Below are positions 9,026-43,872 of a DNA stretch of 44,303 nt, one piece after another. Source of the stretch: an uncultured Dehalococcoidales bacterium (GTDB lineage: Bacteria > Chloroflexota > Dehalococcoidia > GIF9 > AB-539-J10). The notes beneath the pieces are model-generated. The model did no database searches and was not told the origin of the DNA. It was given only the letters and a program-made list of their open reading frames with translations. Within the stretch, counting starts at the first letter, position 1. Each line of letters begins with the position of its first letter. The stretch spans positions 1 through 44,303 of the forward strand of contig CAYYUO010000002.1 of the NCBI GenBank assembly GCA_964474965.1, read 5' to 3'. Made by a program: the position numbers and the translations under genes.

Positions 9026-10615
9026 TTATCCTAGAATCTTCTCTGCCTCTTCCCTATAAGCATCCATTAGATATGGTATTCCGGTGACTTTGGTGCATTC
9101 TTCGGTCAAGGACATCAACTGATGCCGTGTAATAGCTGGCACGCTGAAACACCTTGCCCCAGCCATTAATTGCTGTAAACCTACTCTAATCTTTTCGCTG
9201 AAACTGTATATTCCTACGGCACCCAGCGGGATATTCTTCATTTCACCAGCACCTACTATACCCTTGACGTCTTCGTAGCAGACGAAAATCTCTTCAGGGG
9301 TTGAACCGAATTGACCAACTGTATTTGGTAACTTGCCATCCTTAAGCCACTGCTCAATATTCTTACCTACCATACCCGGAATCATCAAAGCCCGTCCCAT
9401 GCAGACTGCTTTAGTAAAGGGTGCACCAAGTGCAAGAGCCTTGAATACTCCATCTTCACTACTGAATCCACCAGCGAAGGCGATATCGGGTACTCGTTCG
9501 CCTCTATCGGCCAGCTTCTGGCAAAACTCGTAAGCAGCAGCATGTAGGTAGAGACTTGGCATGCCCCACTCTTCCATCATTCGCCAAGGGCTCATACCGG
9601 TACCACCACCAGCGCCATCTAGTGTAAGCAAATCAATCTTGGCATTCGCCCCCCACCTGATGGCCATGGCCAGTTCTCGCAACCCGTAGGCACCAGTTTT
9701 CAAAGTAATACGTTTGAATCCCAAGTCCCTGAGCCTTTTAACTTCAGTATAAAAACCTTCTTCATCGATAAAACCAAGGCGGCTGTGGCGTTCAAATTCC
9801 TTGAGAGAGCCGTCCTTAAAGGCTGCCTGGGATAACGGATTTGAAGGGTCAGGCGTGATAATATAGCCACGCTTTTGAAGCTCTAGTGCTCGTTCTAAAC
9901 TGTTGACCTTGATTTCGCCGCCGATACATTTCGCACCCTGTCCCCATTTTAGTTCAATGGTGTTCAAACCGTGTTTTTTGCTAACGTATTCAGCAACACC
10001 CAATCTAGTATCCTCTACATTCAGTTGGACCAGGATTTCGCCATATCCTTGATGATAACGTCGGTAGACCTCGATTCGACGGTCCATATCCGGTGCTGAA
10101 ATAACCTTGCCATTGGAATCAAGCTTAAGCTGAGGGTCGATGCCGCAAACATTCTCACCACAGACCAATGTAACCCCGCTGATAGCAGCGCCAATAGCGA
10201 AATGGTCCCAGTTCTTACGGGCTATCTCTGTGGAACCCAAAGCCCCGGTAAAGATAGGAACCTTCATCTTGACTTTAATGTCCCAGCCGTATTCAGTCTC
10301 AGTATTTACACTTGGGAAAATAGCCGTATCAGGGTCACCGATTACCCCAGGTGGTAACCCTTCGGCCCCTAAAGCATATCCTTGGATATTCAGATGCGAG
10401 TAATCAACCGGATAATCCTTGTCACCTCCGGCAGTAACTTCACCGTAGGGTCCGGGATAGATTAGTTCCCTACCACGGAAGGTTGCCTTGAAGACCTCGC
10501 AGTTCCCGGTGCAACCGTCAAGGCAGCGGGAGCAGAGACCACTCATAGGCACTACACTTCTGGAACGATTGGCGGTTCTAGTGGCTTCATTGGCGTTTGG
10601 TCGTTGCAGATTCAT
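9026..10615 (-). CDS. glutamate synthase FMN-domain family protein with N-terminal Cys cluster, function unassigned
   Basis: 529 aa. It has an N-terminal CSRCLDGCTGNC motif, then KWGQGAKCIGGEIK and LDGAGGGTGMSP blocks characteristic of the GltS FMN-binding domain. A strong AAGGAG lies 7 nt upstream of the ATG. Confidence 0.8.
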   Translation of the reverse strand: MNLQRPNANEATRTANRSRSVVPMSGLCSRCLDGCTGNCEVFKATFRGRELIYPGPYGEVTAGGDKDYPVDYSHLNIQGYALGAEGLPPGVIGDPDTAIFPSVNTETEYGWDIKVKMKVPIFTGALGSTEIARKNWDHFAIGAAISGVTLVCGENVCGIDPQLKLDSNGKVISAPDMDRRIEVYRRYHQGYGEILVQLNVEDTRLGVAEYVSKKHGLNTIELKWGQGAKCIGGEIKVNSLERALELQKRGYIITPDPSNPLSQAAFKDGSLKEFERHSRLGFIDEEGFYTEVKRLRDLGFKRITLKTGAYGLRELAMAIRWGANAKIDLLTLDGAGGGTGMSPWRMMEEWGMPSLYLHAAAYEFCQKLADRGERVPDIAFAGGFSSEDGVFKALALGAPFTKAVCMGRALMIPGMVGKNIEQWLKDGKLPNTVGQFGSTPEEIFVCYEDVKGIVGAGEMKNIPLGAVGIYSFSEKIRVGLQQLMAGARCFSVPAITRHQLMSLTEECTKVTGIPYLMDAYREEAEKILG

Positions 10616-10636
10616 TCTCTAACACTCCTTAATCTA

Positions 10637-11407
10637 TTATTTCTTGACGGGTATCCCCTTTTTTTGCAAAAAGCTCTTAGCTTGAGATATTGAAATTTCT
10701 CCAAAATGGAAGATTGATGCCGCCAGTAATGCTGAAGCCTTCCCGGTTACCACAGCCTCATAAAAATGCCCCAATTTACCCGCACCACCCGAGGCAATGA
10801 CCGGGATGCTGACGGCTTCAGCTACAGCTCTGGTCATCTCCAAATCATAGCCTTCTTTTGTGCCATCGGCATCTTTGCTGGTGAGCAAAATCTCCCCAGC
10901 CCCTAGCTTCTCCACCCTCTTTGCCCACTCGACGATGTCTATCCCTGTAGCCTCGCTACCACTTTTGACTACCACCTCTAATCGTGGAAGACCAGTTCCA
11001 GAGGGGTTTTTTCGTCCATCGATGGCAACAACGAGCTTTTCCTTGCCAAACTTGTTCGAGGATGCTTTTATCAACTCAGGATTTCTAACCGCAGCCGTAT
11101 TTATCGAAACCTTGCTCACCCCAAGGTCAAACAAGGTCTGCATGTCCTCAAGGCTAGCGATACCGCCTCCCACGGCAAAGGGAACCGTAACCACCTCACA
11201 GACCCTTTTTACCCATTCAAAACGCGTCTTTCTACTCTCCACGGTGGCGAAGATATCAAGAAACACCAGTTCGTCAGCGCCTTCTCGGCAATAAGCCTCC
11301 GCTGCCTCTACAGGATCTCGAGCATCCCTCAGATTCACGAAATTTATTCCCTTGACTACCCTGCCATCCTTAACGTCTAAGCAGGGGATGATTCTCACTA
11401 TATTCAT
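10637..11407 (-). CDS. hisF: imidazole glycerol phosphate synthase cyclase subunit, paralog 1
   Basis: 256 aa: [63 protein letters not shown]. Both catalytic Asp positions are retained. Confidence 0.85.
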   Translation of the reverse strand: MNIVRIIPCLDVKDGRVVKGINFVNLRDARDPVEAAEAYCREGADELVFLDIFATVESRKTRFEWVKRVCEVVTVPFAVGGGIASLEDMQTLFDLGVSKVSINTAAVRNPELIKASSNKFGKEKLVVAIDGRKNPSGTGLPRLEVVVKSGSEATGIDIVEWAKRVEKLGAGEILLTSKDADGTKEGYDLEMTRAVAEAVSIPVIASGGAGKLGHFYEAVVTGKASALLAASIFHFGEISISQAKSFLQKKGIPVKK

Positions 11408-11408
11408 T

Positions 11409-12446
11409 TCATAACTCCCAGAACTTAACTAGGTCTTGGTATTCCATTACAGTACTCATAGCATGATTTTCCACTTCTATGCCAGATTCAACAGCAGTAG
11501 CTATGGGATTAAGCCCCCCTGTGAGTATCATGCCTACCTTATTCAATTCTACAGGAACTTCACACAATGACTTGCTCACCTCGCCCATCATAAACAATCC
11601 ACCTAGATTAGCTTCTTTTAATCCAGCAACGACCTTTTCTGCTTCGGGTTGGCATATGGCCGGTATTTCTCGGAAGTTGGCTAAAATCCTCCCCTCCCCT
11701 TTTCTAGCCACTTGACCAACGCTAGTCATCTTACTGGTAATGTATATCTCTGAGGGGTCTAAGGATGAGCCTGAATATTGGATAAGCTCCACAAATCGCA
11801 AAGGTTTGTGGTTCTTAATTTGCAAAATACCGCCGAATTTGGAATCCATAGGAATGCCCGCTTTAAGCAAAGCACCATTAATTATAACGCTACAAACAGT
11901 GGCCAGACCTATTTTGCCCTGGGGCACAATTATCCCACCCAATTTTTCACCCTGGCGAGCCACAGCCACAAGGTCACTGACGCAGATCCCGGCCTGAAAA
12001 ACGCTTTTCATGATTTCGATCGCCTTCTTAAATTGCTTCTCAGAAAAAAAGGAGACATTAACAGGAACTTTGCCCTGACGCTTATCTAGGTCGAAGTCTG
12101 TTTGATAGGCCAGAAGCTCAATCTTAAAAGCAACAAACCCAACCTTGTCGCTAACTAAAGCACTTTCTAATTCTTCAAGGCCTAGCTGTGTAATCAACCT
12201 CCCATCCCTTCCCACACTCTGTGTAAACCCGCGCGCATCCATTAGCTTAAGGTGATACCGCACCGCCCTTTCGCCTAGCTCAACCCCGTGGTCCTTCAAA
12301 CTCTGCGCAATAACCCTGGCTCCAAGAGGCTCCGGCGAGTCCCTCAGAATTCTCATGATGGCGATTGTCTTTCTTTCTACGTCCTGTGCTTCGAAACCCA
12401 CGGTAAAACTCGGGTATTCTGGGTAATAGGAAACCGTTTTCCACAA
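11409..12446 (-). CDS. nrpR: NrpR-type nitrogen regulator (winged HTH plus one DUF128/NRD domain)
   Basis: The HTH region reads ERKTIAIMRILRDSPEPLGARVIAQSL...GERAVRYHLKLMD. DUF128-type blocks follow: TVCSVIINGALLKAGIPMDSKFGG, SLDPSEIYITSKMTSV, ILANFREIP, GGLNPIA. The start is uncertain because the track's TTG at 12446 lies inside a candidate -10 hexamer. A GTG at 12401 or an ATG at 12356 are alternatives. Confidence 0.75.
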   Translation of the reverse strand: MWKTVSYYPEYPSFTVGFEAQDVERKTIAIMRILRDSPEPLGARVIAQSLKDHGVELGERAVRYHLKLMDARGFTQSVGRDGRLITQLGLEELESALVSDKVGFVAFKIELLAYQTDFDLDKRQGKVPVNVSFFSEKQFKKAIEIMKSVFQAGICVSDLVAVARQGEKLGGIIVPQGKIGLATVCSVIINGALLKAGIPMDSKFGGILQIKNHKPLRFVELIQYSGSSLDPSEIYITSKMTSVGQVARKGEGRILANFREIPAICQPEAEKVVAGLKEANLGGLFMMGEVSKSLCEVPVELNKVGMILTGGLNPIATAVESGIEVENHAMSTVMEYQDLVKFWEL

Positions 12447-19751: not shown

Positions 19752-20435
19752 ATGATTGTCACTAACGATAGAGTCGATGTCGATATTGAAATCGACAAAA
19801 AGCAACTGTGCCACTACATAGGGTACAATGATGGACATAAGCTGTCAGCACGTATTTCTTCTCTAATTGATGACTATGCAGAGCACGCTCACTACCTTAT
19901 TAACCCTTTGCATTCGTATGTCATCAAGGATGTGGAATGGGCTCGAGGCTCCATCTCCTTGATTGAAGGTTCGGTTATCTTCAAAAGCCGAATTATCGCC
20001 CGGTTGCTGGAGCGTTGTTCCCAGGTGGCGATATTCGTGGTGACAATAGGCAAATACCTGGAGGAGACAACAGCTCAACTAGCCAAAGACGGGCTAATAC
20101 TCCAAGCGACTGTTTTGGATGCAATAGGGTCAGGTGCTGTGGAGAAGGTGGCGGACTTTGTCCAAGACAGAATAAAGGATATAGCCGAGGCTCAGGGACT
20201 TGTCACCAGCCAGCGCTTTAGTCCCGGCTATTGCGACTGGAACGTAGGTCAGCAACGGATGCTCTTCTATGCCCTAACTGGTAATACGTTAGGGATTCGC
20301 TTGACCGGGGAGTGTCTAATGGTTCCCCAGAAGTCAATTTCGGGCATTATCGGTATCGGATCCTCAATCAATGATGTAGAGAACTACAACCCTTGCAAGA
20401 CCTGTACTAAACAAGATTGTCCAGGAAGGAGGTAA
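19752..20435 (+). CDS. stand-alone MetH activation-domain-like protein (B12-dependent methionine synthase activation region family)
   Basis: 227 aa with the core RFSPGYCDWNVGQQRMLF and KSISGIIGIG, typical of the MetH reactivation (SAM-binding) domain. The C-terminal tail is Cys-rich: CKTCTKQDCPGRR. Confidence 0.75.
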   Translation: MIVTNDRVDVDIEIDKKQLCHYIGYNDGHKLSARISSLIDDYAEHAHYLINPLHSYVIKDVEWARGSISLIEGSVIFKSRIIARLLERCSQVAIFVVTIGKYLEETTAQLAKDGLILQATVLDAIGSGAVEKVADFVQDRIKDIAEAQGLVTSQRFSPGYCDWNVGQQRMLFYALTGNTLGIRLTGECLMVPQKSISGIIGIGSSINDVENYNPCKTCTKQDCPGRR

Positions 20436-20446
20436 ACTCGAGGATA

Positions 20447-21886
20447 ATGACCCGCAAAGGACTGGAGGGAGGCAGTTTTAAAGTTCTAACTGAAGATTCC
20501 ATATTGAAGGTGCACCAGACTGTGATGCAAGTGATTGAAGAGGTAGGCTTTGAGGTGCAGTCGGAAATGGCACTGGAGCTTTTCGAGGGAGCTGGAGCCA
20601 AGGTAGATTGGGGAAAGCACTTGGTGTGGCTGAAGGAAAGCAAAGTCAAGGAGCTTATTGAAGCGGCACCATCGGAAATTAGACTCTGTGGACAGGATGA
20701 AGCACATGATATTATTTTGGGCGGCCGGCGAGTGTATGCTGGAACGGGTGGCACGGCACTTTATGTCTATCAGCCTGATGTTAACCAGAAAAGACTGGCA
20801 AGCATGGAAGACCTGCGATGCATCGCCAGATTGGTTGATAAGCTGGATAACATCCACTTTTTTCTGCTGCCGACATATCCCAATGAACTGCCTTTGGAAC
20901 AGGTAGATGTGAACCGGTTTTTCGCCGGACTGGACAATACCACCAAGCATGTTATGGGGGGTGTTTATACGCTTGATGGTGCGGAACAGGTGATACGGAT
21001 GGCACAAATCGTTGCCGGCTCTGCTGAAAATCTTCGCCAGCGCCCCCTGATATCCATGATAGCATGCATCATAAGCCCGCTAAGGATAGACAAGACATAT
21101 GGCGATATGATCGTGACCATTGCTAGAAATGGCATGCCTGTAGCTTGCCCCTCCGAACCATTGTGCGGTGCCACTTCACCGGTTACGCTCGCTGGAACCC
21201 TGGTAGTCCAAACCGTAGATTCGCTATTGGGTGTAATGCTTACTCAGATTGTAAACCCGGGGACACCGGTCCTCTTCGGTTCGGTCGCTACAAATACTGA
21301 CTTGAGGGACCTAAAGTACCTGGCAGGTTCAGTTGAAATGGGTTTGCTCAACGCAGCTGGCGCACAGATGGCGCAGTTCTATCAACTTCCTTTCTATGCT
21401 ACTGGTGGCATGACCGATTCTAAAGTTCTCGATGCTCAGAGTGGCTATGAGTCTGCTTTGACCAACTTGCTCTGTGCACTTTCAGGAGCTAACTTCATTC
21501 ATGATGCTGCTGGGCTTATGGAGTTCGCAATGACCGTGTGTTATGAAAAGTATGTCATGGATAACGAGATACTGGGCATGGTGATGAGAGCCGTGGATGG
21601 AATCAAAGTGGATGATGATACTCTGGCCTTTGACCTCATAAAGCAGGTAGGACCGGGAGGTGATTTCGTAGCTGCCCGACATACAAGGCACTTCATGCGC
21701 AGCGAGCACTACCAGCCGTCTCTGAGCGACAGAAATAGCCAGGAGGAATGGCTAGCCAAAGGCGGAAAAGTGACATGGGAAAGAGCTTCAGAAATTGTAA
21801 ATGAGCTTCTGGCTAAGCCTAAATACAGCCTCCCCTCACCGATAAGACAGCAGGTATTATCACAAATCAAGGGGATAATTGCTTAA
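20447..21886 (+). CDS. MttB-superfamily methyltransferase 1, non-pyrrolysine
   Basis: 479 aa, uninterrupted, with no in-frame TAG. The N-terminus reads LTEDSILKVHQTVMQVIEEVGFEV. Length and internal blocks (GGTALYV, FYATGGMTDSK, GPGGDF) fit the trimethylamine methyltransferase MttB family. Confidence 0.85.
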   Translation: MTRKGLEGGSFKVLTEDSILKVHQTVMQVIEEVGFEVQSEMALELFEGAGAKVDWGKHLVWLKESKVKELIEAAPSEIRLCGQDEAHDIILGGRRVYAGTGGTALYVYQPDVNQKRLASMEDLRCIARLVDKLDNIHFFLLPTYPNELPLEQVDVNRFFAGLDNTTKHVMGGVYTLDGAEQVIRMAQIVAGSAENLRQRPLISMIACIISPLRIDKTYGDMIVTIARNGMPVACPSEPLCGATSPVTLAGTLVVQTVDSLLGVMLTQIVNPGTPVLFGSVATNTDLRDLKYLAGSVEMGLLNAAGAQMAQFYQLPFYATGGMTDSKVLDAQSGYESALTNLLCALSGANFIHDAAGLMEFAMTVCYEKYVMDNEILGMVMRAVDGIKVDDDTLAFDLIKQVGPGGDFVAARHTRHFMRSEHYQPSLSDRNSQEEWLAKGGKVTWERASEIVNELLAKPKYSLPSPIRQQVLSQIKGIIA

Positions 21887-30857: not shown

Positions 30858-32089
30858 CGCAACAGCCCTCCATATGCCCTTTCCCCATGCTGCGAGATAT
30901 CTAAACCTACTGTTTCTTCTGTCTTGCTGACTCTTAGCCCTAGAGTAACGTCTACTATTTTGCCCAAAACCCAACTAGCACCGAAGGCAAAAGCCCAGAC
31001 AGCAGCAACTCCGGCGAACTGCCTGGCGAGCTGTAGGGCATTGCCCAGAAGCAAACCATCAGCACCAGCCGAATTAATGGCTGCGCTAGCAAAAATACCG
31101 GTGGCCAGAGCACCCCAGGTGCCTCCCATACCGTGAACCGCCCATACGTCCAGGGACTCGTCTATACCACGCTTCATTCTGAAGAGCATGCAGTAGTAGC
31201 ATATCACTGCTGCCACAATACCTATTGGTATTCCTGCCAGTGGTGGCACGAAGCCGGCTGCGGGGGTTATCGCCACCAGTCCAGCAACCGCTCCGGTGGC
31301 AATGCCAAGGAGACTGGGACGCCGTTGACGCCAGCTGAGTATCATCCAGGTGAAGGCAGCCGCGGCTGCTGAAATGTTAGTGGTGACAAACGCGCTAGCG
31401 GCCAACCCTCCCGAGGTCAGAGCACTGCCAGCATTGAAGCCAAACCAGCCAAACCAGAGCAGCCCGGCGCCAAGCGCTACCATGGGAATGTTATGAGGTT
31501 CCATAGGCTCCTTCCCCAGGAAACCTTTACGAGGACCAAGCAAGCGAGCTAAAGATAAGGCTGAGACGCCGGCAGCAATATGAACTACCGTTCCGCCGGC
31601 AAAGTCAAGTGCCCCCAATTTGGCCAGCCAGCCACCATCACCCCAAACCCAGTGTGCCACGGGGCAATACACAACAGTTAGCCATAGCACGGAAAAGATC
31701 AAGATGGCGCTAAATTTCATTCGCTCGACTACTGCCCCAGTGATTAAGGCTACGGTGATTATGGCAAACATAGCCTGAAATATCATGAAAGCCAGATGGG
31801 GAACAGTGCTGGCATAGACAGCAGATGGCTCCTGTCCTACCTGTCTCAGACCCACCCAGTCAAGCCCACCAATAATGCCTGCTTTGTCAGGACCGAAGCC
31901 CAGACTATAGCCATAGAGCACCCAGATTATGCCCACAACCGCTAAGGCAGCGAAGCTCATCATCATTGTAGAAAGAACACTCTTTCTTCTCACCATGCCG
32001 CCATAGAATAGAGCCACGCCTGGTGTCATTAGCATGACCAGCGCCGATGAAACTAGAAGCCAGGCGGTATCAGCGGCATTGACAGACAT
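30854..32089 (-). CDS. amtB: ammonium transporter
   Basis: About 11 TM helices with AmtB blocks (DTAWLLVSSALVMLMTPG, FAGGTVVHIAAG, WFGWFGFNAGS, VHGMGGTWGAL). I prefer the ATG at 32089, which is preceded by a GGGGGG run. The track start is 32104. Confidence 0.9.
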   Translation of the reverse strand: MSVNAADTAWLLVSSALVMLMTPGVALFYGGMVRRKSVLSTMMMSFAALAVVGIIWVLYGYSLGFGPDKAGIIGGLDWVGLRQVGQEPSAVYASTVPHLAFMIFQAMFAIITVALITGAVVERMKFSAILIFSVLWLTVVYCPVAHWVWGDGGWLAKLGALDFAGGTVVHIAAGVSALSLARLLGPRKGFLGKEPMEPHNIPMVALGAGLLWFGWFGFNAGSALTSGGLAASAFVTTNISAAAAAFTWMILSWRQRRPSLLGIATGAVAGLVAITPAAGFVPPLAGIPIGIVAAVICYYCMLFRMKRGIDESLDVWAVHGMGGTWGALATGIFASAAINSAGADGLLLGNALQLARQFAGVAAVWAFAFGASWVLGKIVDVTLGLRVSKTEETVGLDISQHGERAYGGLLR

Positions 32090-32134
32090 TTGGAATCCCC
32101 CCATATTTCATGTCCACAATTTAAACCCCCTATT

Positions 32135-32172
32135 GTTTCCAGAATATTACAGACAGGTTAAATCTGTGTTAC
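32135..32172 (-). promoter_or_regulatory. four phased pentamer boxes upstream of amtB (candidate response-regulator binding array)
   Basis: Minus strand reads GTAAC-acagat-TTAAC-ctgtct-GTAAT-attctg-GAAAC. These are four 5-nt elements with exact 6-nt spacers, giving an 11-nt register. A TAAATT -10-like hexamer lies 11 nt downstream, and no canonical -35 is present. Confidence 0.5.
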
Positions 32173-32225
32173 AGAGAAAGAAAATGAAAAGTTTGGTGTA
32201 CTTAAGAATGCAAGGGGGAGAATGG

Positions 32226-32894
32226 CTAGAAGTTTTCTCGTAACCTGTAGCCAATATTCCTAACTGTCTCGATGAAGGTATGAGTTGGGTCCTCGATCTT
32301 GCTTCGCAATCTCCTTATGTGAACATCTACTGTTCTATCACCACCGTAATAGTCCCATCCCCAGACCTTATTCAGCAAAGCCTCCCGGGTAAAAACCTTT
32401 CCTTTATTGCTCGCCAGGAATTTGAGTAGCTGGTATTCCCTAAAGGTCAGCATTATTGGCTTGCCATTAAGCGATACCTCGTATTTGTCTAAATCTATAA
32501 CTAAGTCGCCACATCTAATTATATCTTCGCTGTCTATATCCCCTTTTTGCCTCAGAATTCGCTTTATTCTGGCTGTAACCTCATTTACCTCCCAGGGTTT
32601 GACCACAAAATCATCTACGCTGGAATCGAGGCCATTGAGTTTCTCTCCAGACATAAGAGCGATGAGGGGTAAGTTCATGTCTTGCCTTATACTTTGAGCC
32701 AATTCCCACGCTTCTGAACCAATCGGCGCTTCATCCGCGTCTAGCAACATCACCCCAAGGGATTGCCCCACAATTTGTTCGATTGCCTCATCATTATAGG
32801 GAACAATTAGGCAATCAAATCCACTCTGAACAAGTGCCGCCCTCAGTTTCTTTGCTTGTTCGCTTTCGTTAGCTATGATGAACACTCTAGGCAA
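32226..32894 (-). CDS. OmpR/PhoB-family response regulator, orphan, atypical receiver
   Basis: The C-terminal winged helix reads LTFREYQLLKFLASNKGKVFTREALLNKVWGWDYYGGDRTVDVHIRRLRSKIE...VRNIGYRL. In the receiver, the acidic DD pair is replaced by N-E (FIIANESE). The Asp in MLLDAD and the Lys in VVKPW are retained. No histidine kinase gene is in the window. TTG start with AAGGAAG upstream. Confidence 0.85.
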   Translation of the reverse strand: MPRVFIIANESEQAKKLRAALVQSGFDCLIVPYNDEAIEQIVGQSLGVMLLDADEAPIGSEAWELAQSIRQDMNLPLIALMSGEKLNGLDSSVDDFVVKPWEVNEVTARIKRILRQKGDIDSEDIIRCGDLVIDLDKYEVSLNGKPIMLTFREYQLLKFLASNKGKVFTREALLNKVWGWDYYGGDRTVDVHIRRLRSKIEDPTHTFIETVRNIGYRLRENF

Positions 32895-39081: not shown

Positions 39082-39450
39082 CTAATTCTCGACAGTGACT
39101 TCCACAATGTTTTGGCGGGCGATGACTTTCGCCTCATCACCTTTTTTGACAAAGACATGCATCAATCCCAGTACTTCATATTGTCCATTTTCTAAACTGG
39201 ATGTTTCCCACCTGACCGGGAAATTCTCACGTCTATCTTCAGACTCCCCTATCTTAATCCAAGTATCTGTATTCTTCTTCCGATAGTACCAGGGATTAGT
39301 CACCCGCATGATAGGTCCCGAGATACCTAGCTCTGCCAACTCCTTACCCAACAGGTCTTCATCAAACTCCTCGCGCAGCCGAACATTGCCAGAGTACTTT
39401 TGCAACGTCTCTGAAGGCATAAGATAATGTGGTCCCCAATTATATGACAT
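39082..39450 (-). CDS. hypothetical 122-aa protein, no family recognised
   Basis: A strong AAAGGAGG lies 7 nt upstream of the ATG. I see no signal peptide or TM helix. The C-terminal WETSSLENGQYEVLGL...VEVTVEN stretch looks beta-sandwich-like. Confidence 0.6.
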   Translation of the reverse strand: MSYNWGPHYLMPSETLQKYSGNVRLREEFDEDLLGKELAELGISGPIMRVTNPWYYRKKNTDTWIKIGESEDRRENFPVRWETSSLENGQYEVLGLMHVFVKKGDEAKVIARQNIVEVTVEN

Positions 39451-43264: not shown

Positions 43265-43400
43265 ATAGCCCTTTCTTTAATTCCCTCACGTCATGATAGA
43301 GGAAGTCTATAACAAAAACCCCTGTGCCAGTGAACACAGGGTTAACTTAAGCCTCGGCAGGCAAATCATTTAAACCCTCAGGGTACCTGCTGTCACTGGC
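43265..43400 (-). promoter_or_regulatory. rplJ 5' leader (candidate L10-leader autoregulatory RNA)
   Basis: About 135 nt of untranslated leader lie between a strong promoter and the rplJ ATG. It contains a terminator-like hairpin, consistent with known L10(L12)4-controlled leaders. Confidence 0.45.
43311..43340 (-). terminator. intrinsic-terminator-like attenuator hairpin inside the rplJ leader
   Basis: Minus strand reads CCCTGTG-ttcactgg-CACAGGG followed by GTTTTTGTT. Confidence 0.5.
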
Positions 43401-43408
43401 GTCGGGCT

Positions 43409-43436
43409 ATTATAACACAAGGAATCAATTAGTCAA
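43409..43436 (-). promoter_or_regulatory. strong sigma70-type promoter for rplJ-rplL
   Basis: Minus strand reads TTGACT (43436-43431), a 16-nt spacer ending in TGT (extended -10), then TATAAT (43414-43409). Confidence 0.55.
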
Positions 43437-43718: not shown

Positions 43719-43734
43719 ATTTCCTACGATTGAA

Positions 43735-43830
43735 CATGGCGTTTCTCCGAGCCAGTCTGTCTAACGGGTAATCCTATGATAGATAGCTGATAGGGCATAG
43801 CCGAAAGCGGAGATGCCTCCCGTGTTTGGG
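43735..43830 (+). promoter_or_regulatory. candidate molybdenum-cofactor (Moco) riboswitch aptamer
   Basis: It contains CTCCGAGCC (43745-43753), the internal hairpin CCTAT...ATAGG (43772-43795), CCGAAAGCGG (43801-43810) and GCCTCCCGT (43815-43823) followed by GGGAAGGAG. The order and wording match my recollection of the Moco RNA motif, for example the 3' part of the E. coli moaA leader. It lies upstream of a molybdopterin-dehydrogenase subunit gene. Confidence 0.5.
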
Positions 43831-43872
43831 AAGGAGAAGTGTCTTAGAGAAGAGAGACACCGGAGTTTTTTT
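43817..43872 (+). terminator. terminator-like hairpin plus U7 downstream of, and overlapping, the aptamer 3' end
   Basis: CTCCCGTGT (43817-43825) can pair with ACACCGGAG (43857-43865), with one mismatch, directly before TTTTTTT (43866-43872). A shorter local stem GTGTCT/AGACAC (43839-44 / 43855-60) is an alternative. Confidence 0.4.

Follow-up and report, generated by a model that had tools for sequence, protein, structure and literature searches.

On the minus strand of the 44,303-nt window (the whole stretch of DNA analyzed here), a split, archaeal-type glutamate synthase operon (39979-32916) is followed, in this order, by a gene for a GlnR-like OmpR/PhoB-type regulator, an array of four short direct repeats, and the genes amtB, glnK, and glnA (Table 1). 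The regulator gene starts 21 nt past the last glutamate synthase gene and has no array of its own; thus, it is probably co-transcribed with the glutamate synthase operon from an ordinary promoter. The array begins 54 nt past the regulator stop codon. We placed the start of amtB at the ATG at 32089, which lies behind a GGGGGGA ribosome-binding site (32102-32096); the list of open reading frames also offers an in-frame upstream alternative, the ATG at 32104. The 4-nt overlap of glnK with amtB is the same in two relatives (contigs L063 and L065), and glnA is the third gene of the operon, 34 nt after glnK. Where glnK ends, close upstream of glnA, the sequence TGGAGA-17-TATAAT (30546-30518, minus strand; 10 of 12 matches) may provide an internal promoter for array-independent glnA expression. 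The window is rich in genes of nitrogen metabolism, including those for an NrpR homolog, two asparagine synthases, an FGAM synthase, and an NAD synthase. In the species-level genome collection, the relatives of the regulator all belong to Dehalococcoidia or Chloroflexota MAGs, and the DNA runs that contain the locus are salt-marsh metagenomes.

Table 1. Coordinates of the array, its predicted promoter elements, and the associated genes in the window
Feature	Coordinates	Strand	Predicted promoter position	Basis or remark
NrpR homolog	11409-12446	-		HTH_12 and NRD1_2 domains
glnA, type I glutamine synthetase, 447 aa	29141-30484	-		Pfam and NCBIfam; gene calls in relatives
glnK, P-II, 112 aa	30519-30857	-		Pfam P-II; start overlaps amtB stop by 4 nt
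amtB, 411 aa	30854-32089	-		Pfam Ammonium_transp, 442 bits; 411-aa gene called in relatives
Predicted transcription start	32110-32112	-		Inferred only, 6-8 nt after the -10
-10-like hexamer TAAATT	32118-32123	-		11-nt gap after box 4
Box 4, b2-type site GAAAC	32135-32139	-	about -28 to -24	Falls between -35 and -10
Box 3, a2-type site GTAAT	32146-32150	-	about -39 to -35	GTAAT or GTAAC in 21 of 21 aligned promoters
Box 2, b1-type site TTAAC	32157-32161	-	about -50 to -46	
Box 1, a1-type site GTAAC	32168-32172	-	about -61 to -57	GTAAC in 17 of 21 promoters reached via the protein
GlnR-like OmpR/PhoB-type regulator, 222 aa, degenerate receiver	32226-32894	-		Pfam and PDB searches, family alignment

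Read on the minus strand from 32172 to 32135, the array is GTAAC-ACAGAT-TTAAC-CTGTCT-GTAAT-ATTCTG-GAAAC. All of its spacers are exactly 6 nt long and the boxes are thus phased at 11 nt, as the initial annotation of this DNA had read them. When up to three mismatches are allowed, the exact array pattern has a single match in the window and none in 100 shuffles. A generic definition, comprising four boxes with at most one mismatch each from GTAAC at a period of 11, likewise has one match in the window and none in 100 composition-preserving shuffles, and at periods of 8 to 10 and 12 to 14 this generic pattern has no match in the window. With a single match in the window and none in the shuffles, the four-box array is real and not a random feature. 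Two-box arrays, in contrast, occur in the window at chance level (16 observed versus 22 expected), and a two-box match by itself carries no evidential weight. A matrix built from orthologous arrays revealed no second array in the window; the best two-unit matches other than that at amtB reached at most 13 bits, and all of them were intragenic.

The array fits the definition of the GlnR boxes of actinobacteria, which consist of 5-bp sites, either a gTnAc a-site and a GaAAc b-site or GTAAC, separated by exactly 6 nt (PMC10235972). It also fits their usual arrangement, a pair of consecutive boxes with the sites a1-b1-a2-b2 on the coding strand before nitrogen genes, both in the window and in relatives, where it lies upstream of amtB or glnA; actinobacterial GlnR, too, targets amtB-glnK and glnA. 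The initial annotation had further proposed a weaker half-array, TATAC-n6-GAAAC (40038-40023, minus strand), upstream of the ferredoxin/glutamate synthase operon. The sequence is there as described, but as a GlnR-type site it does not rise above chance. Its TATAC differs from GTAAC by three mismatches, and the half-array scores under the threshold with the matrix from orthologous sites. A canonical-looking promoter precedes this operon on the minus strand (TTGGCT at 40061-40056, 17 nt, and TATACT at 40038-40033), and the TATAC of the half-array is the first five bases of its -10 hexamer. Among the relatives, the half-array is absent in L063, and its GAAAC is replaced by GCAAC in L065. These two contigs also carry a second glnA gene divergent from the glutamate synthase operon (L063, 1897-3237; L065, 1705-3045), a position that is occupied in the window by a YifB-family gene. 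Within the operon, the window contains a 122-aa open reading frame without a family match (39082-39450, minus strand), which is absent in L063.

We gathered the corresponding loci of relatives through the regulator protein and not through the motif, which yielded regulators 41-85% identical to that of the window. The genes downstream of these regulators are amtB-glnK-glnA, glnA paralogs, or asnB. Across Dehalococcoidia, the same array is found in amtB and glnA promoters beside regulators that are 48-85% identical to the window's. The alignment of upstream regions that had been suggested as a check on the array therefore finds both its boxes and its phasing conserved. The spacers drift while the boxes and the 11-nt phasing are kept, with CTGTCT, CCAGTT, GCTATT, CCTGCC, ATGTCT, and ACGTTT occurring as spacer sequences. 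In the 21 promoters reached via the protein, information amounts to 1.75 bits per column in the boxes versus 0.96 bits in the spacers, and the phasing is invariant. The TTAAC variant of box 2 is itself conserved at that position in most relatives, and box 4 is GAAAC, GTAAC, GTAAT, or GAAAT across all aligned promoters. The array travels with its target where other genes have been inserted (L006, L022, and L026) and precedes glnA where amtB is missing (L017, L021, and L035). In the most distant clade, with about 42% regulator identity, a perfect GTAAC-n6-GTAAC pair lies before a glnA-like gene.

A metagenome scan with the exact 20 specified bases matched at least 119 contigs, of which we examined 80. 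The first gene downstream of the array is amtB in 71 of these 80, with a median distance of 46 nt to the start codon, and BLAST identified glnA downstream in 2 of the 80. When the open reading frames were read directly, targets were also recognized in 2 of the 4 unclassified contigs, one with a glnA-like gene (L089) and one with a gene for an Amt-family transporter (L123), and the single contig with a GlnK call (L132) turned out to carry glnA. Only 2 contigs of adequate length among the 80 examined, out of at least 119, have no obvious target. The nearest upstream gene is a same-strand regulator homolog (47-96% identity) in 46 of the 69 examined contigs with at least 600 nt of upstream sequence; in the other 23, a regulator homolog is not the immediate upstream neighbor. 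The scan with the four-box pattern, which had been recommended for the whole genome and was run here on metagenomes, thus recovers almost exclusively amtB and glnA promoters, usually beside a homolog of the regulator. Some relatives (L074, L078, L107, L121, L142, L103, L098, L145, L019, L008, L028, and L117) carry a small open reading frame, about 55-75 codons long, in the interval from the array to amtB; it is absent from the window. The motif DIYxxxKLWxxLSPRL is conserved at the N terminus of its product, whose tail is acidic or of low complexity. The gap between array and amtB in these relatives is 190-270 nt and contains no Rfam match.

The distance between the array and the putative -10 element is also fixed. 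A TAnnnT hexamer follows box 4 in 61 of the 71 distinct arrays, at +10 in 52 and at +11 in 9, whereas at any other offset it is found in at most 9 of the 71. In relatives, the -10 hexamer is typically 20-50 nt from the start codon, a stretch that includes the Shine-Dalgarno sequence. This fixed offset from box 4, together with a short leader bearing a Shine-Dalgarno sequence, makes TAnnnT the obvious predicted -10 element. A -35 hexamer is absent; TATTCT stands 17 nt upstream of the -10 and matches TTGACA at 2 of 6 positions, and a promoter scan reported no sigma-70-type site at the amtB promoter. Box 3 overlaps the place where a -35 hexamer would sit. The description of this promoter in the initial annotation, with an 11-nt gap to TAAATT, no -35 element, and the promoter-proximal boxes at -24 to -39, agrees with the sequence. 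Given the conserved TAnnnT at +10/+11, the array likely lies upstream of the transcription start and not in the leader. Among public RNA runs, only three metatranscriptomes contain small shares of the locus; their contigs, from relatives at 90-95% identity, cover the coding regions of amtB and the regulator and not 32034-32205.

The regulator matches Pfam Trans_reg_C with 99 bits, and its receiver scores 21 bits, under the cut-off. A histidine kinase was found neither in any open reading frame of the 44-kb window nor in the 20-kb contexts of relatives, which leaves intact the earlier view of an orphan OmpR-family regulator directly upstream of the array. We compared the window regulator's DNA-binding domain with proteins in the PDB. 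It scored 103-106 bits with full-length chains of GlnR (8HIH and 8HIG) and 104 bits with the GlnR chain that comprises the DNA-binding domain only (8HML), versus 86 bits with full-length RegX3, 88-94 bits with the DNA-binding domains of VicR, YycF, and WalR (VicR, 94 bits), and 70 bits with PhoB. A profile of the 27-member family again had GlnR as its top match. Among full-length chains it scored 172 and 165 bits with GlnR and 155 bits with RegX3, among DNA-binding-domain-only chains 145 bits with GlnR (8HML) and 114 bits with VicR, and with PhoB about 90 bits. Of these structures, 8HIH is the M. tuberculosis GlnR complex and 8HML the S. erythraea GlnR DNA-binding domain with DNA (PMC10235972); 8HIG, which that paper does not mention, aligns identically to 8HML and is taken to be full-length S. 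erythraea GlnR. GlnR outscores VicR in 175 of 177 family members and representatives. Thus, the resemblance to GlnR that had been noticed in the DNA motif extends to the protein, and GlnR structures are the top matches of both the DNA-binding domain and the family profile.

The residues that contact DNA point in the same direction. In the S. erythraea GlnR co-crystal, R186, V190, R193, and R194 read the bases of GTAAC (PMC10235972), and all four are identical in the window regulator. The phosphate contacts are identical to those of S. erythraea GlnR at 11 of 12 positions, the exception being K151, which is replaced by R. Within the family, the residues for base and phosphate contacts are invariant or at least 90% conserved. 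Since they are also found in other OmpR/PhoB proteins, such as PhoB, these residues are consistent with, and not proof of, GlnR-like recognition. Relative to actinobacterial GlnR, the DNA-binding domain is 49-52% identical in the window protein, 48-58% identical across the 27 family members, in which the base-contact residues are identical, and up to 66% identical in wider relatives.

The receiver domain has diverged much further. Actinobacterial GlnR has a conserved, unphosphorylated Asp50 that is held by Arg52 and Thr9 for dimerization (review PMC10704036). In the family alignment, N-E or similar residues stand in for the acidic DD pair, the phospho-acceptor position holds D, A, T, or E, and the conserved Lys varies. 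The window regulator does have an aspartate, D51, but the residue at +2 is D and not R; hence it lacks the Asp50-Arg52 pair of actinobacterial GlnR. It scores 16.1 bits with the Pfam GlnR_1st model (PF21695; E = 0.011), below the cut-off of 27. This model is matched at E ≤ 1 by 22 of the 27 family members (best, 4.1e-9), more than match the generic receiver model, and the alignment of the profile with GlnR starts at about residue 40. An atypical receiver and the absence of an adjacent kinase gene are features that the family shares with actinobacterial GlnR. Because the receiver has no conserved phosphorylation pocket, Asp phosphorylation is probably not the signal route, and a signal input of another kind is expected.

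Automatic labels on this protein family are generic or "PhoP" (JGI). A search with the DNA-binding domain through 1.84 billion representatives uncovered a very large family with degenerate receivers; the best 150 matches score 131-173 bits, all above the 103-106 bits of the GlnR PDB chains. An Armatimonadota-annotated homolog has a clear GlnR_1st domain and is encoded directly after glnA (L187, 547-600 and 2265-2984). The glnA gene is preceded by GCAAC-n6-GTAAC-n6-GAAAT, 10 nt, and TACCCT, which is the same architecture with three boxes. In light of this homolog, the Dehalococcoidia proteins appear to form a branch within a broader GlnR-like family, to which the actinobacterial proteins also belong.

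Based on these observations, we consider it very probable that amtB-glnK-glnA has an activator-dependent promoter and that the array is its activator site, with predicted binding by four protomers of the adjacent GlnR-like regulator. Five lines of evidence support this reading: the array is conserved, its targets are specific, it is linked to the regulator gene, it keeps a fixed distance to the -10, and the DNA-binding domain is GlnR-like. All the sequence-level checks suggested in the initial annotation favored it. We infer that the adjacent regulator is the protein that binds the array, that it acts as an activator, and that it responds to nitrogen limitation. In the M. tuberculosis GlnR-TAC structure, four protomers occupy a1-b1-a2-b2 head to tail, with b2 downstream of the -35 and a2, along with sigma region 4, at a -35 that is non-optimal, and the receiver domains bridge to RNA polymerase (PMC10235972). 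The array fits this geometry on the predicted -10 and transcription start, with its b2 box downstream of the -35 position and its a2 box on a poor or absent -35. By analogy, four regulator protomers would bind the four direct 5-bp sites head to tail, one helical turn apart, on sites centered at about -60/-59, -49/-48, -38/-37, and -27/-26. The third site would overlie the missing -35 element, and the fourth would fall between the -35 and -10 positions. In actinobacteria the a2 site is dispensable, and box 3 may be so as well. The bound regulator would then recruit or stabilize RNA polymerase, as M. tuberculosis GlnR does on its amtB promoter.

We considered whether the same regulator might instead use the array as a repressor, occluding the region from -35 to -10 and keeping amtB-glnK-glnA off when nitrogen is plentiful. 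Boxes 3 and 4 lie at about -39 to -24, where a bound protein can block RNA polymerase, and actinobacterial GlnR is known to repress some genes, such as ald (PMC4140684; review PMC10704036). Nevertheless, repression appears unlikely here. The promoter has no -35 element for activator-independent transcription, and in the GlnR-TAC structure this geometry serves activation. Moreover, the distance of 10-11 nt from array to -10 is rigid even in distant relatives, as expected of an activator that has to contact RNA polymerase; occlusion would not require it.

The array has parallels in the Pho boxes of PhoB and of B. subtilis and Streptomyces PhoP, where activation is class II-like, namely 11-bp-phased direct repeats, predicted head-to-tail binding, and replacement of the -35 element, and the recognition-helix residues of the proteins are the same. 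Another OmpR/PhoB-family protein, for example one of the Pho type, could be imagined to bind the array, its adjacency to the window's regulator being incidental. Many OmpR/PhoB regulators have direct repeats of the GTAAC/TTAAC type with 11-bp phasing in common, the residues that contact DNA are widely shared, the JGI label reads "PhoP," and Streptomyces PhoP binds GlnR-controlled promoters (PMC3561978); the contigs without the regulator as immediate upstream neighbor (23 of 69) would also agree with a different binder. We regard this explanation as very unlikely, however, since the array accompanies the regulator gene even when the target changes between amtB, another Amt gene, and glnA, and since the targets in the 80 examined contigs, of at least 119, are nitrogen-assimilation genes only. 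PhoR phosphorylates the Pho regulators, which control phosphate genes, whereas the regulator described here has a degenerate pocket and neither a kinase partner nor phosphate genes nearby. Its closest characterized relatives are GlnR proteins and not PhoP or PhoB, and the similarity of its DNA-binding domain to PhoB is clearly below that to GlnR (70 versus 106 bits).

It is scarcely credible that the repeats are an RNA element or terminator in the transcribed leader or at the 3' end of the upstream operon, or a functionless chance feature: although the array begins so soon after the regulator stop codon and the transcription start is a prediction only, 32235-32090 folds no more stably than shuffles do (z = -0.05), neither a terminator-like site nor an Rfam family was found at the array, ACAG/CTGT, a small inverted repeat, lacks conservation, conservation is seen in the direct-repeat boxes and the -10 hexamer and not in paired positions, and chance is ruled out by the window and shuffle counts and by the metagenome scan.

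The lineage also encodes NrpR, as had been claimed, with a homolog elsewhere in the window (Table 1). NrpR is a 2-oxoglutarate-sensing repressor of nitrogen genes in methanogens, and its operator in Methanococcus is the inverted repeat GGAA-N6-TTCC, which overlaps the promoter. The array resembles the NrpR system in having nitrogen-assimilation genes as targets, but it consists of direct repeats, unlike the NrpR operator. No canonical NrpR operator was detected near the array in the window, and no GGAA-N5-7-TTCC sequence was present within -150 to +250 of the array in the 80 contigs. In many metagenome contigs, the gene directly upstream of that for the GlnR-like protein is nrpR. A perfect GGAAACCGTTTTCC palindrome is located at 12429-12442, at the 5' end of nrpR in the window, facing a divergent pdxT-like gene (12466, plus strand); it may be an autoregulatory operator of nrpR. 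A second pair of HisF-like and Glu_synthase-like genes adjoins nrpR (9026-11407, minus strand).

Taken as a whole, the system is of a known kind; what is new is the phylum, the more degenerate receiver, and an unusually regular and deeply conserved four-site promoter. The host belongs to the class Dehalococcoidia of the phylum Chloroflexota and not to the actinobacteria. Its array is far more regular than actinobacterial sites, with the TTAAC variant at b1 and the GTAAT variant at a2 themselves conserved. Also unlike the actinobacterial gene, the gene for the regulator is located after the glutamate synthase operon or after nrpR, and an archaeal-type NrpR coexists in the genome. In the literature searched, we found no paper on an OmpR-type GlnR in Chloroflexi or Dehalococcoides, no paper on NrpR in Dehalococcoidia, and nothing published on the regulation of nitrogen assimilation in Dehalococcoidia; the papers found treat OmpR-type GlnR only for actinobacteria. 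From the sequences compared here, GlnR-type nitrogen control seems to work in another phylum beyond actinobacteria. More tentatively, and with somewhat more doubt than conviction, we suggest that GlnR-type control may be an old system of several Terrabacteria phyla (Actinomycetota, Chloroflexota, and Armatimonadota), and that the Dehalococcoidia regulator may have become a true pseudo-receiver protein, lacking a conserved Asp or Lys, that senses nitrogen status by a route other than phosphorylation, alongside an archaeal-type NrpR whose gene is often its neighbor. If such a shared old system exists, the four-site promoter geometry would have been preserved across phyla.

Dehalococcoidia abound in sediments and aquifers, and growing them is difficult or impossible. 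For these bacteria, a candidate master regulator, its DNA site, and a core regulon (amtB-glnK-glnA and glnA) can now be named from sequence alone. The regular four-site promoter would offer a clean model for the four-protomer activation mode of M. tuberculosis GlnR, and the motif could serve to mark nitrogen-limitation promoters in metagenomes and metatranscriptomes.

Three further elements were noticed in the window. The pyrrolysine insertion sequence of mttB (Rfam PYLIS_3) matches with 57 bits at 21410-21509 on the plus strand, inside an uninterrupted MTTB-family open reading frame (20417-21886). Since this frame has no in-frame amber codon, it probably encodes a non-pyrrolysine MttB homolog that keeps the PYLIS_3 sequence. 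A molybdenum/tungsten cofactor riboswitch (54 bits) lies at 43733-43852 on the plus strand, and a ribosomal protein L10 leader (46 bits) lies at 43304-43417 on the minus strand, upstream of rplJ-rplL.
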